DNA of 64,000 bases from Callorhinchus milii (taxonomy: Eukaryota), in the NCBI RefSeq assembly GCF_018977255.1, contig NW_024704747.1, positions 18,104,001 through 18,168,000 on the forward strand, in the 5' to 3' direction. The notes beneath the pieces were generated by a model. It was not told the DNA's origin. It did not search any database and saw only the letters and a program-made list of their open reading frames with translations. A program made the translations under genes and the position numbers. Positions 163-64,000 of this stretch are shown here, one piece after another. Positions within the stretch are counted from its first letter, which is position 1. The number at the start of each line of letters is the position of its first letter.

Positions 163-3100
163 GCTCAGCCTAATATATCGCTGTATCAAAAGTAACTTAG
201 GATGAGTTTGAGGTAGGTAAGATAAGCAGTAATTGGAAACTGAAGGATTTTGTGTCTGAAAGAAGGGAATAATTGCAATGTCCAGATGTGTAGTAACCTT
301 TGTGGTGTTTGACGAGTTTCGTGTGTAAATCAACACGAGGAACACATTATGAAATGTCGTGACCTTTGTCCTGCATTTTCTTAAATATAAAAGAAGAAAA
401 GTCAACTTTGGTCATTCATTTAATATCGGGCTTTAGGGTTTCTAATGGGTTGAACTTTGGGAGTCAGATGGTTTGTGTGTGCTCCAGCATTGACTTGAGT
501 AAAAGTATTATCTGATCTTGAAGTCGCCGTTCCTCTGATGTAAGAAATAGTTGGTTTAAGATTTTCTCAACCCGTATGAGCTATTGCCTTTGGCTTACTA
601 TTGTACCCTGCTGGTTTTTTACACAATAAATGCAATTTGAGAAGGCAAAGAATCAAATGATGACTTCAGAAAGCATTGCTTCATTTGCCCAACTTCATCT
701 TCCTCTCGATCATCTGCTTGGGCTTTTCAACCAGCTGTTGTCCATATGCCTTATGGTGCAATGTACTAAACCTTTTCTTTCAATCCCAGGCCAAGCCCAG
801 AGGGAACAGATATGGGGACACTCATCCCTCTATCAACCCACATAAGTTTCAGGCTCTTAATGCTTTCATTTAGTCATTACTCCAGAGTACTTGAGCTTTG
901 CTCGTATTCTTCCCAGCTCCATTACTCTTCCCAAGTTTTGGGAAACTTCCAACCATCCAGTTCTGCTTGAAATAATGCATCATTTTCTACTTGTTAGTGA
1001 TTCTGATTTATAATAGTAATAATTCTTGCATTTGATATAGTGACTTATCATGTCATTGGGATGTATCAAAACACTTCACAGAATATACTGTAAAGTGAAT
1101 TGACTGTACATTTTGTGGGTGACACTGCACACCTCTCCTCAAAGTGCATTGGCTTACTTCTCCTTCTTCCTAGGTACAGTCTCACTGATGCCTGTATACA
1201 ATGCTCAAGTGACTATCATTAACATATGAGCCATGGCAATGAGTATTTCTAGCCTATTCAGTATGAGTGCCCAATCTTGTCCTCGCCCACCATCTACCCA
1301 TCCTCTTCCAGTAAGGGCCACGAGTTAGTAATCAGGTGTAGTAATCCTGATTTGGTCCTCCTCCCCTCTGTAAGCCAAGGACACTGAAGTCCATTGGATC
1401 ACCGATTGCTACCTGCAGTTAAGGACAACATAGGAATAATAAGTGACAGACCTCAAGCATCCGTTGCACCCCGATCAGGAGACTGATAAGTTAGCACAAG
1501 GAAACACAAGAGAGGGTAAACCTGTCAGAATTCACTTAAATAAATCTAGGGTGTCCCACAGAGCTGGCGAACAGAGCTGAAGAACGAAAAGAAAGTTCTT
1601 GGTCAATTTATCCTCTTGCTTTGCAAAAGGAAGTGATTATCAAACAACATCTTTGGGAGGCATAATCACAATGTTTAAAGTTCCTGAAAACACAAGATAT
1701 AAGACTCTCACCACAATCCTTTAGAGCATGGCTCTGAGCAAGACTTCAGCCACAAGCAAATGGAAAAGGAATCAAAGCAACAACTTCAGAAGAGTATCCA
1801 GCTGAGTCAGACAGGGTGAAAACTGCAAGCATTGGCTGTCTGTTTGAACAATAATAATTTATATTTATAGATACCTGAACATCGGGGCGGTGTTGGGGGT
1901 GGGGGGTGGGGAGATGTCCTAAGGTGCTTTATACATTAGTCTGGACACTGGGGAGCTGAGGAGAATAGAGGCAGGAGAGCTGACGATTGAAGGATAGACC
2001 AAACTGGAACAGATTGCCAGGAAGGGTAGTTAAGGACAGGAAAACAAGGCCATAGGACTTGGTTTTTTTTTAAAAAAAGCAGCTCATTGCTGTAGTGGGA
2101 GGATGAGTATTTTGGAAGGTTGAGATCAAATAGGCCAAAGGGCCTTGTACATTCAAACCTCTCTAATGATCTTGTGAGTGCAGAATCCTTGCTTCAATCA
2201 CCCTTCCTGGTAACTCTGTTCCAGTTGTTAATTGCCCTCAGTGTAAAGTGTAACTAAAAGCTTCATAGTCCTTCCTCTCCTTAAAGCACATTGACTTAGT
2301 TCTCTTATGCCTTGGGATGGTTCCATTGATGCCAGTTGCACTGGGTATTCTGCTCATGTGACTATTATTAACATGTGAGCCATGACAATGAGTGCTGCCA
2401 GGCTGTTCAACTTTAGTGCTTGATCTTGTCCTTAGCCAGCCTCTACTTATACCTACCTTCTTGACAAACTGTCCTAAAATTGCCCTTGGCAACCCAGAAA
2501 CTGTCCACTTGTTCTGCTGCCTTGGCACATATGAAAGTATTGTTCTAAATTTGACTTTTCAAGCTCATTTATAATCTTGCACAACTCTATAAAGTTCCCT
2601 CTGCAACGTCTCGTTCTCAAAGTCAAATGCAGAAATAATAAAGTTCATTGATTTCTTTCATATAAAAGAGGTCAGACATGGAAGAGACCTTTGGAATGCA
2701 GAGATTTCGGTTCACTCCCTAACTAGATCCAGACATGCCCTGCAGAGTTTATTTCGAAAGCTCTGCAAGATATTCAATGCATGCTACCTCTGCTTCAGTT
2801 TTGCAATACTGCTGTCAGACTCAGTGTTCCTGAGGAACATTTAGAGATTCTGGCACTGAGGAAAAATAGAGATTTATAGCCTCCTCAAGCAGACTTGAGA
2901 AAGCTTTAAATCAGATCAGATTGGCAATGCCATTCCCTCTTCTGACAGTGACGATACCAATCTATTTTGGGGTTTAATTTTCATTGCTTCTTAATTGCAC
3001 ATTTAATAAGGTGTGTCCTTTTGGGTAGAGAGTGTGCAACACATACCTGACAAATTTCAACCATATGTGGAACTCTCAGTAGTTCAATGTGAGGATTCTT

Positions 3101-54300: not shown

Positions 54301-56307
54301 CTCATTCCTTTCTCGCTACCTCCCCAGTGTCTGGCCTGCTGGCTGTCTCTTTGCCTTGTGCCCTGCTGACTGCAGTGTGCAGAGCTCAGTCCGTGCCAAG
54401 GAAAAACTGCAGAGGCTCGCAAGGTTCATACACAGCTGCTCTGGACCGCTCTGCCCTGCTGTGCTTTATACACTCGCGCTGAGCTCCGCCATTAGTCATG
54501 ATGGTCGGTTCACCATTGGCAGCTCAGACAGCCGGGGTGGGAGTGATCCCCATAGATTGAACTTCACAACATCTGGCAAGATATTTATGGGGCATCACTT
54601 TCTCACTCACGCATTCACTCTTGGTTTTCGCTCGTTCTCTCTCACACACACTCCTTCACCTCTTTCAATCACTCTCTCTCACACACACACGCACACTTTC
54701 TCTCTGTCCTTCTCTCTGAGGCCAGAATAAATGCTAGCACACAACTTTTTTGTAAATGAAAGGTAGAGTACTTCAACAAGCTCCTGTGATGGAGAGGCAT
54801 TGCCTTGTGAGCTCTGTCTGTCCTGCAGCACAGCCTTTACTGGTGACAGGACTTGCTCACACAGGAGATGAGGCTCCTGCAGAAGGTTACTGACAGGCAG
54901 GAGCATCAGAACAGATCTTAGAGGTTTTCCATTCAAAATTACACAGAGTTTGGAATTTATTGCCTCAGGTGACTGGGTGAATAAAATCATTGAAGGGGAA
55001 CTGGATAAGCAGTGGAGCAGTAAAAACATTGCGTAATTTGTAGGTGAGGCTAATTTGTGCACAGCGGTTTACCACAAGCAACAACAACAAAATTACATTT
55101 GTATAGAGCCTTTCATGTCGGAAGGATGTCCCAAGTAGTGCTGTGGGATATTTAAAGTCCAGGCATAGACACAATCTTGGTTTATTGTGTTACCCATAGG
55201 ACCGCACCTAATAATCTTTGCATCTGAGACGTCTCAAAGCGCTTCACAGGATATACTGTAAAGTGAATTGATTGTATATTTTGTGGGCGAAACTCAGCAA
55301 CCAATTTCACACATCAGTGTCCCACAAACAGTCATGGATTGAGTGACCAATTTATTTATTTATTTATTTTGAAGGAATTATTACCCCTGTAAACAGAAGC
55401 GTGTGGAGTAAGGAAACTTGCCCAACATTTTGCTTGCTGAGAATAGAACCCAGGTCTCTCGCTTGCGAGGCGAGTGCTCTAACCACTGAGTTACAGGACT
55501 CCACCTCTGACAATGCAGTGCTCCCCCAGCTCAGACCGTGAGCTCAAAGTGGGGCTTCGACTCACATCCTTCTGACTCTGAGGGAATGAGAACGCTGCTG
55601 ACTGAGCCAGGCTGACACCTGCTGTCTGGCTTTCTCACTCTCTCTCTCTCTCTCTCTCTCTCCGCCTGTGTTTATTTTCTGTGTCTTCAGAGCTCGCGGT
55701 GTCAGAGTGCACGCAGCGGCCGGTGGACGTGGTGTTCCTGGTGGACGGCTCGGAGAGGATGGGTCAGGGCGGTTTCACGCAGGTGCAGGAGTTTCTGGAG
55801 AAAATGTCGAGCAGGCTCATCCTGGCGGACAGGCACAATGATCCCTCCAGCGCCCGCCTGGCCTTGTTGCAGTACGGCGGCGACAATGAGCAGGAGCTGG
55901 CCTTCGGGCTGAGCTACAACCTCACCCTCATCGCCAATGGCATCACCCAGATGAAGTACATGGACTCTGCCTCCAATGTGGGCTCGGCCATCATCTACGC
56001 CATCCACAATGTGGTGCAGAGGCCAGGCAGGTTTGCGATCCAGGGCGCCCGCAAGAATGCAGAGCTCTCCTTCGTCTTCATCACCGACGGTACCAGCGGC
56101 CAGAAGAGCCTGGTAGAGGCGGTGAGCGCCATGAGGAAGCACAATGTGGTGCCCACGGTCATCGCGGTGGGCAAGAACACGGAGATGGACATGGATATCC
56201 TGCTCCAGATCACCCTGGGGGAGATGGCAGCGATTTATCGAGCCGAGGATTATTCCCACATTCTACACTCCACCTTCTTCGAAAGGTTCCTCAAGTGGAT
56301 CTGTTAA
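21233..56307 (+). CDS. col6a2: Collagen type VI alpha-2 chain (whole spliced CDS span, ~1028 aa, 28 coding exons)
   Basis: N1 vWA ([10 protein letters not shown]...[16 protein letters not shown]), Gly-X-Y exons, [20 protein letters not shown]1 (DSSESIG...[13 protein letters not shown]) and C2 ending FLKWIC all match recalled human COL6A2. Most exon sizes match human (21, 66, 54, 45, 27, 27, 45, 54, 63...46, 153, 453, 39). Confidence 0.97.
21414..21808 (-). mobile_element. Deu-SINE copy in col6a2 intron 2
   Basis: Near full-length reverse-complement copy with (AAT)n tail. Confidence 0.75.
21993..22597 (+). CDS. col6a2: col6a2 exon 3, N1 vWA domain
   Basis: TTCCAG|CG AAG CCT GAT TGC (A)[17 protein letters not shown]...RIIKVM|GTGAGT; 605 nt. 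Confidence 0.97.
23199..23670. mobile_element. MITE-like inverted-repeat element with nested Penelope-like fragment
   Basis: Outer arms ~23199-23305 and ~23556-23670 are reverse complements. The inner insert ~23326-23537 is flanked by a 15-bp duplication TATGTTGA(A/C)TTTGGA. Confidence 0.7.
24773..24793 (+). CDS. col6a2: col6a2 exon 4 (21 nt, QTKAFNN)
   Basis: TTGTTTCAG|...|GTAAGT; same size as human exon 4 (KHEAYGE). Confidence 0.88.
24947..25260 (+). mobile_element. SINE family 2, best full-length copy
   Basis: GGAGTCCTGTAGCTCAGTGGTTAGAGCACTCGCTTTGCAAG...GAGTTCAATTCC tRNA-like head; tail GCTATATCAAATGCAAGG(ATT)n. Confidence 0.8.
25497..26010 (+). repeat. Unclassified ~500-bp interspersed repeat
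   Basis: Homologous segments at ~63255-63710 (+), ~42720-42990 (+), ~32170-32440 (-), ~52540-52700 (-). Confidence 0.65.
26331..26396 (+). CDS. col6a2: col6a2 exon 5 ([22 protein letters not shown])
   Basis: TTTCAG|...|GTAAGA; 66 nt; start of the triple helix. Confidence 0.96.
26896..27918 (+). mobile_element. 5'-truncated L2-clade LINE (degenerate reverse transcriptase)
   Basis: GVPQGSIL...LFLVYMLPL...[11 protein letters not shown] motifs with frameshifts; 3' end GGGCGCTATATATAAGTTATTGTTG. Confidence 0.9.
27982..28035 (+). CDS. col6a2: col6a2 exon 6 ([18 protein letters not shown])
   Basis: AG/GT boundaries, 54 nt Gly-X-Y. Confidence 0.95.
28127..28171 (+). CDS. col6a2: col6a2 exon 7 ([15 protein letters not shown])
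   Basis: 45 nt; identical to the recalled human peptide. Confidence 0.97.
28410..28620 (+). mobile_element. CR1-clade LINE 3' fragment
   Basis: AGGACACAGGCTTAGAG...AGGGTAATTAACGACTGGAACAGGTTACCAGG, typical of a CR1 ORF2 end. Confidence 0.55.
28633..28706. repeat. Near-perfect 34-bp inverted repeat (hairpin)
   Basis: 28633-28666 pairs with 28673-28706; 6-nt loop, one G-U and one G-G. Confidence 0.9.
28920..28946 (+). CDS. col6a2: col6a2 exon 8 (GFRGMKGEK)
   Basis: 27 nt, AG/GT. Confidence 0.94.
29542..29568 (+). CDS. col6a2: col6a2 exon 9 (GELGTEGKK)
   Basis: 27 nt, AG/GT. Confidence 0.94.
29659..29703 (+). CDS. col6a2: col6a2 exon 10 ([15 protein letters not shown])
   Basis: 45 nt, AG/GT. 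Confidence 0.94.
30281..30334 (+). CDS. col6a2: col6a2 exon 11 ([18 protein letters not shown])
   Basis: 54 nt; contains the conserved helical Cys used in collagen VI dimer assembly. Confidence 0.96.
31346..31408 (+). CDS. col6a2: col6a2 exon 12 ([21 protein letters not shown])
   Basis: 63 nt, AG/GT. Confidence 0.94.
31822..31884 (+). CDS. col6a2: col6a2 exon 13 ([21 protein letters not shown])
   Basis: 63 nt, AG/GT. Confidence 0.94.
32604..32657 (+). CDS. col6a2: col6a2 exon 14a ([18 protein letters not shown])
   Basis: 54 nt, AG/GT; first part of the human 90-nt exon 14 equivalent. Confidence 0.93.
32722..32934. mobile_element. MITE-like inverted-repeat element (GAAATTCCAC family)
   Basis: CAGCCTTAACCTGTAAGACCA pairs with TGGTCTTACAGTTTAAGACTG; TTAAATTTTAAGATCACGCA pairs with TGCGTAATCTTAAATTTTAA. 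Confidence 0.6.
33010..33305 (-). mobile_element. CR1-clade LINE 3' fragment
   Basis: Reverse complement of the CR1 3' end seen at 28410-28620; a similar copy lies at ~38930-39190. Confidence 0.55.
33938..33973 (+). CDS. col6a2: col6a2 exon 14b ([12 protein letters not shown])
   Basis: 36 nt; TCTCCACAG|...|GTAAGT. Confidence 0.93.
34107..34510 (+). mobile_element. Deu-SINE, near full length
   Basis: GTCAGCCTGGCTCAGTTGGTAGCAC head, Deu core, ATT tail. Confidence 0.75.
36188..36250 (+). CDS. col6a2: col6a2 exon 15 ([21 protein letters not shown])
   Basis: 63 nt; contains RGD. Confidence 0.95.
36856..36918 (+). CDS. col6a2: col6a2 exon 16 ([21 protein letters not shown])
   Basis: 63 nt, AG/GT. 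Confidence 0.95.
37255..37317 (+). CDS. col6a2: col6a2 exon 17 ([21 protein letters not shown])
   Basis: 63 nt, AG/GT. Confidence 0.95.
38176..38367. mobile_element. MITE with ~35-40-bp terminal inverted repeats
   Basis: CTGAAATTCCACCCAGTCTTAGCCCGGGAGACCTATTT pairs with AAATAGCCTCACAGACTAAGACTAAGTGGAATTTCAG. Confidence 0.7.
38509..38571 (+). CDS. col6a2: col6a2 exon 18 ([21 protein letters not shown])
   Basis: 63 nt; contains RGD. Confidence 0.95.
38843..38893 (+). CDS. col6a2: col6a2 exon 19 ([17 protein letters not shown])
   Basis: 51 nt with the conserved helix interruption GFSFPG (human GFSYPG). Confidence 0.96.
39523..39558 (+). CDS. col6a2: col6a2 exon 20 ([12 protein letters not shown])
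   Basis: 36 nt, AG/GTGAGT; contains RGD. Confidence 0.94.
40016..40078 (+). CDS. col6a2: col6a2 exon 21 ([21 protein letters not shown])
   Basis: 63 nt, AG/GT. Confidence 0.95.
40597..40659 (+). CDS. col6a2: col6a2 exon 22 ([21 protein letters not shown])
   Basis: 63 nt, AG/GT. Confidence 0.95.
41520..41895 (+). mobile_element. L2-clade LINE 3' fragment
   Basis: GCCTTCAGC...CTCTGGAACTCT...CTCAAGACCTTTCTCTTTGACCG...AGCGCCTTAGGACGTCC...GGCGCTCAATAAATG...(GTT)n. Confidence 0.75.
42305..42340 (+). CDS. col6a2: col6a2 exon 23 ([12 protein letters not shown])
   Basis: 36 nt; end of the helix. Confidence 0.96.
43544..43589 (+). CDS. col6a2: col6a2 exon 24 ([15 protein letters not shown])
   Basis: 46 nt Cys-rich linker; |GTGAGT. 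Confidence 0.97.
44343..44495 (+). CDS. col6a2: col6a2 exon 25 (start of C1 vWA)
   Basis: (D)[21 protein letters not shown]...KDPKSPT(G); 153 nt. Confidence 0.97.
45094..45123 (+). repeat. (AC)n microsatellite
   Basis: Directly visible. Confidence 0.9.
45271..45723 (+). CDS. col6a2: col6a2 exon 26 (C1 vWA)
   Basis: (G)[10 protein letters not shown]...EELLCP; 453 nt. Confidence 0.97.
46212..46250 (+). CDS. col6a2: col6a2 exon 27 ((D)[12 protein letters not shown])
   Basis: 39 nt; phase-1 donor ACAG|GTAGG. Confidence 0.97.
49263..49475. mobile_element. MITE-like element (GAAATTCCAC family)
   Basis: AGGGGAAAAATTCCACC pairs with GGTGGAAATTTCCCCT. Confidence 0.5.
49870..50270 (-). mobile_element. 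L2-clade LINE 3' fragment
   Basis: Reverse-complement L2 tail (CAACAGCAACTTGCATTTATATAGCGC); minus-strand ORF ends ...AFSHYVPNL...[10 protein letters not shown]. Confidence 0.7.
50738..51045 (+). CDS. col6a2: col6a2 alternative terminal exon (2C2a-type C-terminus, 102 aa)
   Basis: Acceptor TCTTTAATCGTTTACAG|AT is in phase with exon 27. ...[52 protein letters not shown] aligns with recalled human 2C2a ...YSQLVAVLVYTAERAKFATGVERQDWMELFIDTFKLVHRDIVGDPETALALC*. Confidence 0.92.
51744..51749 (+). terminator. Candidate polyadenylation signal for the 2C2a-type isoform
   Basis: AATAAA about 700 nt after the alternative stop, ending a repeat-poor UTR-like stretch. Confidence 0.55.
55210..55502 (-). 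mobile_element. SINE family 2 copy
   Basis: Reverse complement of 24947-25260. Confidence 0.75.
55691..56307 (+). CDS. col6a2: col6a2 exon 28 (C2 vWA, canonical C-terminus)
   Basis: Acceptor TCTTCAG|AG reinforced by a (CT)n tract; (E)[22 protein letters not shown]...[10 protein letters not shown]. Confidence 0.97.
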
Positions 56308-59370: not shown

Positions 59371-61509
59371 TCTAACACTGGGGATCGTCCTACAAACAGC
59401 CACAAAATGAATGACCAATTCTATCTGAGGGATTGTTGGACAAACATCAGGACAAAATTCCCTTCTTTTTTTGAAAAGTCTCATTGGAACAGGAAGAATC
59501 AGACCTCCAACAATGCAGAACATCCCCAGCACTCCATTGGAACGTCAGCCTTAACTGTGCGTTCAGAGTCCCAACGTGGGACTTGATCTCACAATCTCTG
59601 GCTCAGAAGCGAGAGTGCAACCAATTGAGCCAGGCTGACACACAATAGTTCCAAGATTTGGAGGATGAGTGTTGGTGCCACTATGACATTTTTCTATATA
59701 ACCGCTCATTCTAATGAGCATTAAAATATACCCAACAAACTAATGGTCTCATTCAAAGGATGGTTCAGAGACATGGGATTTGAACCCACAAAATCTTCTG
59801 ACCTACAGGTGAGAGTGATACCAACTGAGCCAGATATGGGGATGGTGGTGGTGAGGAAAGTGATTGGACAGGAATGAAAGGAAAGGTAACAATGTAGGAA
59901 AATTCACAGCTAGTTGAGGACTGCTAGCTATAGTTTCACCCACAAAATATACAGTCAATTCACTTTACATTATATTTTGAGAAGTCTCAAAGACGTGATA
60001 AGGCGCTAAATCAAATGCAAGGATTATTATTATTATTATTATTATAATAGGAAGTCAATTAATTCAGGGGCTTTCCTTGTAACCGAAAGGGACATGTGTT
60101 TCTGTTGTTTTGGAACTGGTCAACCCAATACCCCAGGCGAAACTCCTTTGATTTTGACCACCAAAAGCTTATTTAATTATTGTTTCAAAAGAAATAGGAC
60201 AACAGATGTAGAGATATTTGCAATCTGATTTAATGACATCAACACACAGCAGAAGTCATTGTGTTAAACCTTTATAGCCTTTGAAACATATAATGCTGTG
60301 CAATACTCACTGCTATAATCTCAAGGCAACGTCCGGTGTGGTTTATTTTTAAGCAAATAAAAGCAATTACAGCAGAATAATAATTTCAATACAGAATTCT
60401 GCAAAAGCTACCAATTTAATTTAGTCATGAAAGATATAATAAACTGCAGAAATCCCAGTCATTGCACCAATTGCACCCCTATCTGTCTTGTGCAAAAGAC
60501 ATCTCAAGCTTGCGTTCATCAATATTTTCACTGCCCAGATGAGAAGCCCCTTGCTGTTTCCCGTTGTGATGTGGGCCCGAAGGGAATTTTGCCCCGAATC
60601 CTGCTGCAATCTGTAAAATAATAATCCTTGCATTTGATATAGCACTGTATCATGTCATTGAAATGTCTCAAAGTGCTTCACAAGATTTTACTCTGGAATG
60701 TAGTGACCATGTATTTTTTTAGGCAAACACGGCAGCTAATTTGCGCTCTGCAAAAGTCCCACAAACAGCAAGGAAGTCAATGACCAGTTTTATCTGGGGG
60801 ATTGTTAGACTGCGATTTAATTTTTCGGCCAATGGACAGCATTTCTCACATTGCAGCGTCAGCCTAGACCAGTGGTGGCCAACCCATGGCCCAGGGACAC
60901 GGAGGTGACCCGCAGACCATCAAGAAGTGGCCCCGCTGAACATTCACAGCAGTCAAGGAGATGTCGCAATCCTGCCTGTGGACACCTGACAAAAAAGAGA
61001 GTGCTTCTCCATCAGACAGACGGGGTAGTGTACATTAACCTCCAAATCTACCATTGTTTCCTTGCTAATCAAAGATGGAATCTACCACAAGCATTTGAGA
61101 AATCAAAGTGTAAAAGGCCTCCATTAAGCTTTGTGCTCATTTAAAAAAAAACACCACAACAGTGTGGATAATGTATGTGTGTGTATGTGGCCGAATTCAG
61201 GAGAGGACTCAGCTGCAGAGTTTGTATGAATGGGATAGTTTTGGAAGAGGGAAATATCATATCAACAAACCTCCCGACAACAGCATTGGAGTAGGAATGA
61301 TTCTCCTGCACAATCCAGAGCTGAGCCCCTTGTGCTGTTCCCATTTACAGGGATAGGGGCAAGAGCACCAGGCAGGGAACGGACCCACCGCTCTCCACAC
61401 TACGTGCAACACAGAGCCGAATGTCCTACAAATTGCATTGAGCTAACACAACGCATTGAGGGAAATTGGTGTCAGATCAAAATATGAATTGATGGGTAGT
61501 TTCACTCAC

Positions 61510-61861
61510 CTAATGTCCACGTCCTCCACGTCCTCCATGCCCATGGCCTCCATGCTCATGGCATCCTTGGTCATGGTCTTCATGCTCATGGCATCCTTGC
61601 CCATGGCCTCCATGCCCATGGCCTCCATGCCCATGGTCTCCATGCCCATGGCATCCTTGCCCTTGGCCTCCATGCCCATGGTCTTCATGCTCATGGCATC
61701 CTTGCCCTTGGCCTCCATGCCCATGGCCTCCATGCCCATGGCCTCCATGCCCATGGTCTCCATGCTCATGGCACCTTTCCCATGGTCTTCATGCCCATGG
61801 TCCTTACAATCTTTCGGTTGGCAATATTTTGATGGCTGAGGGCCTTTGTACACCTGCTGCT
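61510..61861 (-). CDS. Main exon of candidate His/Gly/Cys-rich repeat protein gene (1-nt frameshift as assembled)
   Basis: Acceptor TTATTTTCCTTACAG| at 61862 and donor TAG|GTGAGT at 61510/61509; encodes QQVYKGPQPSKYCQPKDCKD plus 18 x 15-nt repeats. Confidence 0.6.
61530..61800. repeat. 15-bp minisatellite, 18 units (minus-strand consensus CATGGGCATGGAGGC)
   Basis: Directly visible; one unit (~61771-61784) is 14 nt. Confidence 0.95.
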
Positions 61862-62928
61862 CTGTAAGGAAAATAACTACTGTAAATATACAGCAGACTC
61901 TGGTTACAATTGTACAAATTTGTATCACAACCTTCTCCAACAAGCTGATGGGCTGAACATAAGGCCACACACACCAAGTGCACCTATTCCCATTCACATG
62001 GGGGACATCAACAAACCCAAGCAAAGAAGAAACCAGTTTTCAGAGTGAGACCTTCTCTGAGTCATTGGGGGTGATGGTAGGGAACGTGGAAAGGGCAGGG
62101 GATTTTCAACGGAGTGTCTGACATACATGGAAACCCAGTATCGTGCTTAAGAGTCTCCAAACCAAACTGGAAATTTCCATTTGCCTAGAATGGAGAGCAC
62201 ATTCTCATCCTGGAGGGCCATACCTTGCTCAGAGCAGGGAGATGGGACTAAATGGATAGCACATTGCCAGATGGACCAAATGGACCTCTTCTGTACTGTA
62301 AAATTCTATTCTATTATTCTATGAAATGCTTCCACCTGCTAAAAGCATTGCTGCAGTCGTCATACAATGTTACTGTTGCACACCTCCCTCTACAGAGGAC
62401 TGTGGCTTGATGCTGCTCTGTGCTGGAGGCCCTGGGAAAACTCAAAAGATTTCACTGACCATCAGAGTCCCAAAATAGCCTTGTTATTGCCTTAAATTCA
62501 GTTTCCCCAGGGGTTAGATATACTCCTATTTTCTAATTATTAGATATACTTTATATCAGGACATGCAGGTTGCAAAATTTGACCAATTTTCTTTAGTTCT
62601 TCAAATAAAACCGAAGATACAGATTGAAAATTAAAGACTGTGCTTAAGAAATTCTGGAGCTCGCTTTGATCCGATGAACATGGATTGAAATCTTGTTGGC
62701 ATGAATTTCTTGTAACGGCATTACTCATGCTTCGACCTAGATTTGAGGTGATATTTCTAAAGATTCCCATCTCGTCATTGTAGGGCCAATGTGACACACC
62801 CACGACAATGAACCCTGCAGGTGTCTACAACACTTTCCAAGGTCTTTACTCTGTGTGGAGTCTCAACACATTTTTTTTGCAGGAATTAAAGGAATATAAA
62901 ATGACAATGAAAATGAATTGTTTCTTAC

Positions 62929-62960
62929 GCTGATCACACATCTCAAATGGCGTTGCTCAC
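62929..62960 (-). CDS. Candidate ATG-containing 32-nt exon of the His-rich gene (ATG at 62941)
   Basis: Acceptor CTGTTTTGTTTTTCCTTCAG|, 19 nt of UTR, GAG ATG TGT GAT CAG C|GTAAGA; phase 1 matches the 61861 exon. Confidence 0.55.
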
Positions 62961-64000
62961 CTGAAGGAAAAACAAAACAGAGTACTGTTATTTCTTACTT
63001 GACTATTGGAACTTATGTCAAAGATCAGATATGAGCAAAGAAGCTTCTGTTTTGCCGTGTATTAATAATAATTATAATCCTTACATTTGGTAGAGTGCCT
63101 TTCACATCTCAAAGTGCTTCACAGAATATATTGTAAAGTGAATTTTCTGTGCGAAATGTGGCAGGCAATTGTATACAGCAATGTTATGGATTGAGTAAAC
63201 AATGTATTTATTTTGGAGGTATTATTACCCCCGGAAAGCTTTTTTTGGGGTCAGCCGGGTGTCTGACACATGCAGAAGCCCATTACTATGCTTAAGAGGA
63301 TCCAAACTAAGCTGAGATTTCCACGCATCCCACCTACACATGGAAATCCCAGAGATAGATTGTTGAAATGGAATGCACACTCTCTCCCTAGAGGAATGCA
63401 TCCTGCTTACCTAATTGCGGAAAGGATTAGGTGCCGGTTGGCAAGAGCCAAGGTTTGGGAATTCCAGAATGTGCATTGAGGTACTGCTGGAGTCTAATCA
63501 GCTAAAACCGCATAGCTGGCCATTGATATTGCTGTCCGGCAAGCTTTCCCACTGCTTGTCCAGCTAGGACCACCCTAACCGTTAGGTGTTTGGATTGCAG
63601 GGTTAACAGAAGCTGAGTGGGATGACTCTCTGCCCCCAATAATTGTTCTGCCCTTCAAGGTCCTGCCAATTAATCAAGTTATTCCAGGTCAGCAGTGCCG
63701 TGGAATACTGAAGGAAGATGATTTTGAACACACTGGCAGGTGTGTGTTATTTAAATTGTGCTCTCCAGTTACTGACTGACACAAAATATTTACCAATGGA
63801 AATTATTTCTCCCTATTGACTCTATTTTGCTTTTTGTTAAACAAAATCTTTAAGAATCTCTGCGGTTGAAATTGCACCTGTGTGAAGATTTACTCTATTT
63901 TCTTCTTGTACTCTATTCAATTTCTTAAATACAGCTTTAATTCTGTGAGTTTCTTTAAGAGCTGCAGGAAAGCCAACTGACTTCAAATTTAAGACTAAAT

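Follow-up and report, generated by a model that had tools for sequence, protein, structure and literature searches.

The window, that is the whole stretch of 64,000 nucleotides of Callorhinchus milii DNA that was analysed, contains on its minus strand a real, spliced, single-copy orphan gene, which is probably protein-coding in a histidine-rich reading frame (the His frame). It is clear that this small gene is hidden by a one-base deficit in the reference assembly, and that it is absent from the protein collections searched. By analogy with known systems, we tentatively favour the view that its predicted product of 121 residues may be a disordered, cross-linkable and metal-binding matrix protein of differentiating epithelium, cornification-like in character and independently evolved. 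The positions of the exons, of the repeat and of the neighbouring genes are given in Table 1.

Table 1. Features of the orphan gene and its surroundings (window positions, or extended window coordinates where indicated)
Feature	Position	Strand	Remarks
Candidate non-coding exon 1	G000:C6:18168619-18168703 = 64619-64703 (extended window coordinates)		Prediction; just past the window end
Predicted intron 1, part inside the window	62961..64000	-	
Exon 2	62929..62960	-	19 nt of 5' UTR, ATG at 62941, 13 coding nt (M-C-D-Q and one base), phase-1 donor
Exon 3	61510..61861	-	Gln/Lys/Cys/Pro head and His/Gly/Cys pentapeptide body; the stop codon is the final three bases
15-nt minisatellite, 18 units	61532..61800	-	Codes for HGHGG, H(E/G)H(E/G)D and xG(Q/K)GC pentapeptides; TRF score 342, 81% matches
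One-base deficit site, 14-nt unit	61773..61775	-	From the repeat register and the X5 contig
Dispersed repeat copy	60611..60806	.	AT-rich end supplies the weak exon-4 acceptor
Exon 4, 3' UTR	60220..60610	-	Polyadenylation hexamers AATAAA at 60347 and ATTAAA at 60234
COL6A2, last coding exon	55606..56307	+	Downstream neighbour, tail to tail; VWA domain; best PDB match collagen VI alpha 2, E 1.8e-63
SF3B1	Ends beyond the window near 68781 (extended coordinates)	-	Upstream neighbour; PDB match E 2e-29

Exons 2 and 3 are both present in the sequence, and their predicted join is in phase 1, the coding nucleotides ATG TGT GAT CAG C of exon 2 being continued in exon 3. An initial annotation had described a gene of these two exons with strong splice signals, and its exons and phase were borne out; the gene is nevertheless larger, with an additional 3' UTR exon beginning at 60610 and a requirement for a non-coding exon upstream. 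Scoring of 12.4 kb with a weight matrix built from assumed frequencies placed the acceptors at 62960 and 61861 in ranks 1 and 12 among 781 AG sites, and the donor at 61510 in rank 3 among 658 GT sites, in agreement with that description, whereas the exon-2 donor at 62929 reached only rank 84 and cannot be called strong. The acceptor of exon 4 ranked 113 of 781, and numerous BLAST matches across 184 kb start at about 60610-60620. The TAG stop codon at 61512-61510 is followed directly by a GTGAGT donor, exactly as had been claimed. Bracketing by an acceptor of at least 9 bits and a donor of at least 10 bits was found for 4 of 3000 random 270-nt segments and for 1 of the 19 TRF rows in 184 kb, namely the exon-3 repeat, with thresholds chosen after the locus had been inspected and with the same assumed matrix frequencies.

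An in-frame TGA lies inside exon 2, upstream of the ATG, and therefore no upstream coding exon can feed the His frame; a non-coding first exon upstream of exon 2 is required. The candidate for it consists of AATAAATA at 64703 and a donor TCG/GTAAGT at 64619, 84 nt apart, the donor taking rank 7 among the 658. A separate observation concerns GTGAGC at 62960-62955 of the minus strand, directly behind the exon-2 acceptor, which is the top-scoring donor-like site in the 12.4 kb. We take the resulting AG/GT arrangement to resemble a recursive splice site, and it could allow skipping of the exon that carries the ATG.

Evidence for splicing comes from assembled sequencing runs. Part of the stretch is carried by 10 of the 24 runs, none of which is recorded as RNA (the RNA type of X5 is a guess), and contigs of four of them (X1, X5, X6 and X8) were aligned to a 10-kb repeat-rich stretch. 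Exon 3 is covered by contigs in X5 and X6. Two contigs from separate studies, X5 record 9 (483 nt) and X6 record 18 (227 nt), both leave the genome at 60610; each aligns from its position 93, with 92 letters left over, and an AG adjoins 60610 on the minus strand. When exon 3 was joined to the 60610 acceptor in a de Bruijn simulation, the resulting contig started 92 nt inside exon 3 and had a total length of 483 nt when k was 31, which is also the word length used in the run index; five other values of k did not reproduce this contig. The simulated 3' end was taken from X5. Since the geometry of the contigs equals that of the simulated splice to the base, the splice between exons 3 and 4, and with it the minus-strand direction, is very likely. 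Thus, the last 92 nt of exon 3 are very likely spliced to exon 4, which adds a 3' UTR exon to the gene. Neither a joint 62929>61861 nor one to a first exon was among those listed for the aligned contigs. In X6, cover falls to zero in bins 1337-1670 and 2673-3006 of the aligned stretch (L015), both of them intronic. The share of matching words was 0.00 in 6 of the 8 runs guessed to be RNA, a value which is no proof of absence. Contig depths of 27 and 12-17 at the locus stand against 271-413 and 110 on the SF3B1 UTR, although such figures are unsuited to ranking genes.

The reading frame of exon 3 depends on a single base. Units of the minisatellite are 15 nt long in 17 of 18 cases, while unit 2 (61784-61771) has 14 nt, so that judging from this register one base is missing from the assembly. 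Upstream of unit 2, the open frame of the head reads the repeat as HGHED-HGK, and the His frame then runs from 61773 to the TAG. It had been proposed that one base be restored near 61774, and one contig of X5 holds an extra base at exactly that place, a C behind window position 61773 on the plus strand, at a depth of 47.4/47.4; with this base, units of 15 nt and an open His frame are both regained. At the deficit site, X1 has a depth of 6.42 with no insertion counted, differences in this run being not fully counted, and X6 and X8 are without cover at 61773-61775. The missing base is either an assembly error or a real allele. At L015:1155 and L015:7962, two unique positions, X1 disagrees with the assembly across its full depth, so that this run represents either another animal or an assembly with further errors in this region.

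A different product could be read in a frame rich in methionine. This would have 184 residues if translated from the assembled allele, or about 159 (counted by hand) if translation began at the ATG at 61798 with exon 2 skipped on an intact allele, and in both cases it would enter exon 4. The Met-rich frame is indeed open through the repeat and for 63 codons into exon 4, and the GTGAGC described above could let exon 2 be skipped. However, in the sole contig that shows the deficit site, the extra base is present and brings the exon-2 ATG into the His frame, the exon-4 tail is of ordinary mixed composition, and no relatives of this frame were found, its Pfam matches being sub-threshold only. We therefore regard a Met-rich product as very unlikely. 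A metagenome scan let through 2 of 43 candidates; these matched only the Met-rich part of the repeat and were rejected.

Counting the parts on either side of the break separately, with X for the broken codon, gives the predicted product of the His frame 121 residues, among them 39 Gly (or 40, should that codon be Gly), 30 His, 12 Gln and 8 Cys; the length and the His and Cys counts are the same as those given by the initial annotation. Histidine makes up 24.8%, glycine 32.2% and Asp plus Glu (16 residues) 13.2% of this protein of about 12 kDa, which has 2 Tyr, a repeated C-H-x-H-x-x-H pattern and RGGRGH as its predicted C-terminus. C, P, G, Q, K and H together account for 82% of the exon-3 His frame, a share that does not exceed 57% in any of 223 ATG ORFs from the S100A cluster. 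L, I, V, F, M and W contribute one residue in total to the exon-3 His frame. A hydrophobic leader is thus lacking, in line with the earlier claim that there is no signal peptide, and the predicted protein would stay in the cell. The AF2 model of the 87-residue His part, made from one sequence, had a mean pLDDT of 47.8, which is weak evidence; such a low-confidence model is compatible with disorder.

No relative of this protein was recognized. The His part had no match at E<=0.001 among 448 candidates of 47-153 residues, and the 40-residue head and the piece in the Met-rich frame gave no relatives among longer proteins. The only phmmer match among 1.84 billion representatives, P0002, is nesprin-like, has an insert of GSHSQ repeats and was rejected as a match of composition only. 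PDB and Rfam searches returned 0 matches each, Pfam had none for the head or the His part, and the ESM Atlas gave no usable match for either, which shows neither absence nor novelty. With 0 of 448 candidates, one composition-only match and 0 PDB matches, homology to a described His-rich metal binder was not found. Because the two halves were searched separately and low-complexity queries are penalised, a diverged orthologue could have been missed. Neither a description of the gene nor one of His-rich cartilaginous-fish proteins appeared in the literature searched, which covered few subscription journals and no supplements, so that the gene may be listed in a supplement or genome annotation, and the MCDQ start led there to unrelated papers only. 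The earlier designation of the gene as undescribed agrees with the protein, Pfam, PDB and ESM Atlas searches.

Tandem paralogues, which had been suggested as worth looking for, were found neither in 184 kb nor in the genome: searches by DNA, by protein and by pattern revealed no second copy among the best candidates scored. Two His-rich loci of the same genome, L021 and L022, proved to be simple repeats and not paralogues; simple repeats elsewhere in the genome can thus also give His-rich frames, which counts against the matrix-protein reading. The five contiguous MCD(x)QQ matches in the genome all sit in ORFs of only 10-31 residues and were likewise dismissed.

One has to consider, then, that the transcript is real and the open frame incidental, a non-coding or young neutral transcript, started from its own promoter or by read-through from SF3B1, having exonised a minisatellite. 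The assembly, and possibly X1 too, carries the frameshift, differences between repeat units are almost all non-synonymous in the His frame, the exon-4 acceptor is repeat-derived, and protein searches found no relatives. In addition, the SF3B1 contigs end at 68781 (X5) and 68785 (X6), 5.8 kb upstream of the orphan gene and on the same strand. Against such an origin stand a stop-free frame of 121 codons, which starts from an ATG closed off upstream and has its stop directly before the donor, and a non-repetitive head that resembles known structural proteins. A fusion with SF3B1 was considered and rejected: its last donor (phase 0), spliced into exon 2, meets a stop after five codons, and therefore no fusion protein is possible. 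On balance, we consider an incidental open frame unlikely.

The N-terminus offers a hint as to the kind of protein that may be encoded. Its first seven predicted residues, MCDQQQQ, are those that begin opossum KPRP, and KG follows a few residues on in both; in the available text of PMC10791643, opossum KPRP begins MCDQQQQQ with VKG shortly after, and KPLCE of platypus, echidna and opossum begins MCDQQKQ. The KPRP-like start put forward in the initial annotation is thus real. The chance of the seven-residue match is roughly 1.4e-6 per protein, or 0.03 over 20,000 proteins, as computed after the fact from assumed frequencies. Other features also approach the SEDC genes, to which KPRP and KPLCE belong. 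The accessible part of PMC4245816 gives as search criteria an acceptor 20-25 nt before the ATG, a G-GTAAG donor 60-90 nt after a TATA box and a product of 70-170 residues, and defines SEDC genes as those in which a non-coding exon precedes a single exon with the entire coding region. In the orphan gene, the exon-2 acceptor lies 19 nt before the ATG, and a distance of 84 nt separates the candidate donor from AATAAATA, a sequence that departs from the canonical TATA box. The layout comes near to these values, and the predicted length falls within the range. The head, rich in Q, K, C and P and followed by internal repeats as in SEDC proteins, fits the general N-terminal motif MSYxxxxQQCKQPCQPPP only loosely (a Q run and CQP). 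That motif, together with a C-terminal QQxKQPSQWP in some members only, is given in the same portion of PMC4245816, and the termini of EDC proteins are described as transglutaminase and disulfide sites as far as the text of PMC4245816 and PMC5827346 was available.

Could the gene be a true distant homologue of the KPRP/KPLCE-type EDC genes, moved away from the S100A cluster or older than it? The N-terminal identity with opossum KPRP, the KG after it and the SEDC-like 5' layout would be accounted for in this way. Nevertheless, four of the seven S100 matches form a cluster on another contig, C21, and the closest one on the same contig, C6, is 5.9 Mb off. A phase-1 intron interrupts the coding region after its first 13 nucleotides, and another intron lies in the 3' UTR. 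The S100 cluster itself (G000:C21:9170001-9260000, L031-L039, 90 kb) has 223 ATG ORFs of at least 50 residues, and none of the 12 with the strongest bias was SEDC-like; a pattern search of the genome found no single-exon MCDQ gene. The C-terminus is RGGRGH and not QQxKQPSQWP. The N-terminal S100 domain of SFTP (filaggrin-type) proteins is lacking, with no Pfam match and no S100 match at the locus, and the gene is solitary among the best genome candidates scored, in place of the clustering of cornification genes; its His/Gly body also sets it apart from SEDC proteins. The fishes covered by PMC4245816, the available part of which mentions no shark, yielded no SEDC genes. In location, exon layout, clustering and C-terminus the gene is not a member of the EDC, and such homology is most improbable. 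The likeness of the orphan protein to KPRP is likely to have arisen by convergence, which the initial annotation had already held likely.

Short cytoplasmic metal binders built of His, Cys, Gly and acidic residues include Hpn, the C-terminal tail of SlyD and the metallothioneins. The predicted protein could accordingly be soluble, buffering Zn, Cu or Ni in the cytoplasm in the manner of these proteins, with the KPRP-like start being due to chance. Its 30 His, 8 Cys and 16 Asp/Glu, the repeated C-H-x-H-x-x-H pattern, the lack of a hydrophobic leader and the single copy are all consistent with this, as is the likeness to Hpn and the SlyD tail. Yet Hpn and the SlyD tail are bacterial, metallothioneins are based on Cys clusters, and no Pfam, PDB or phmmer match links the orphan protein to these or other metal-binding families; furthermore, the head rich in Q, K, C and P, the KPRP match and the SEDC-like 5' layout would remain unexplained. 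A soluble metal buffer therefore appears rather unlikely to us.

The matrix protein that we tentatively favour would accommodate both halves of the sequence, and this reading is preferred because of the Gln/Lys/Cys/Pro head, the KPRP start and a His/Gly content like that of Nvjp-1, together with the absence of a leader. Exon 2 would be spliced to exon 3 and its ATG used, and, with the stop codon at the last junction, the mRNA would escape nonsense-mediated decay. Transglutaminase and disulfides might anchor the head in a protein mesh, in the manner of EDC proteins, and the 30 His, with Asp, Glu and Cys, might bind Zn or Cu, so that the mesh would be compacted or stiffened, as by Nvjp-1 in the worm jaw. 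The body has probably grown through expansion of the minisatellite inside the exon. According to the available text of PMC9465683, Nvjp-1 of the Nereis jaw contains more than 25% His and 35% Gly, and Zn coordination hardens its matrix. The predicted protein, with about a quarter His, a third Gly, acidic residues and putative disorder, is of the same Nvjp-1 or Hpn type in composition. In contrast, Nvjp-1, as described there, is a Tyr-rich protein of 38 kDa, whereas the orphan product is far smaller, poor in Tyr and supplied with Cys and Gln, and the two have no sequence match. Also comparable are the EDMTFH/HRP and EDCH proteins of archosaurs, small His- or His/Cys-rich epithelial EDC proteins in the accessible part of PMC5827346; these are located in the EDC, the His content of EDMTFH is not conserved across birds, and the likeness is one of description and not of alignment.

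Low complexity, repeats, lack of a fold and richness in Q, K and C, the traits of cornification proteins in the portion of PMC13487633 available, are shared by the predicted protein, which has no folded domain recognized. As far as the texts of PMC13487633 and PMC12101200 extend, proteins of the cornification type arose separately in amniotes, amphibians and lampreys. The amphibian AEDC and lamprey KRTAP-like proteins described there resemble the orphan gene in low complexity, repeats, absence of a fold, split coding regions and a non-EDC origin. Unlike it, they form clustered families with proteomic or expression support, the AEDC lying at the ADIRF locus between sncg and glud1, while the orphan gene is single, sits at SF3B1/COL6A2 and is known here from sequence and contigs. 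Several points speak against the matrix reading: the gene is solitary, whereas the cornification genes treated in the available part of PMC13487633 are clustered; the C-terminus lacks the Q/K motif of SEDC proteins; the frame is shifted in the assembly, which may reflect a real allele; and cornified appendages are generally absent in jawed fishes, judging from the accessible text of PMC12101200.

Cornification-type proteins of cartilaginous fishes did not appear in the literature searched, whose coverage took in few subscription journals and did not extend to supplements. A transcribed candidate in this lineage would make the question of independent origin directly testable, and would illustrate how near to the KPRP start a gene of separate origin may come. 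A broader proposal, which we regard as doubtful, is that cartilaginous fishes possess a cornification-type protein that evolved outside the EDC, in which a transglutaminase head like that of KPRP is joined to a His/Gly body hardened by zinc, as found in invertebrate jaws, and that exon 3 may yield a His-rich or a Met-rich product depending on a one-base allele.

A separate problem is how the gene came to its present position. In human, FTCD is the tail-to-tail neighbour of COL6A2. Matches to FTCD_N were located on C6 at 10.97 Mb and 18.68 Mb, 7 Mb and 0.5 Mb away, so that the orphan gene is not a remnant of FTCD. As COL6A2 here adjoins the orphan gene and SF3B1, with FTCD_N elsewhere, the gene may sit at a rearrangement point.

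Two minor observations concern five-residue repeats. In P0002, residues of about 340-740 form the long GSHSQ insert, which is another pentapeptide repeat within coding sequence. In the head of the orphan protein, the pentamers P-S-K-Y-C and Q-P-K-D-C (61835-61806, minus strand) look like older, degenerate xG(K/Q)GC units.
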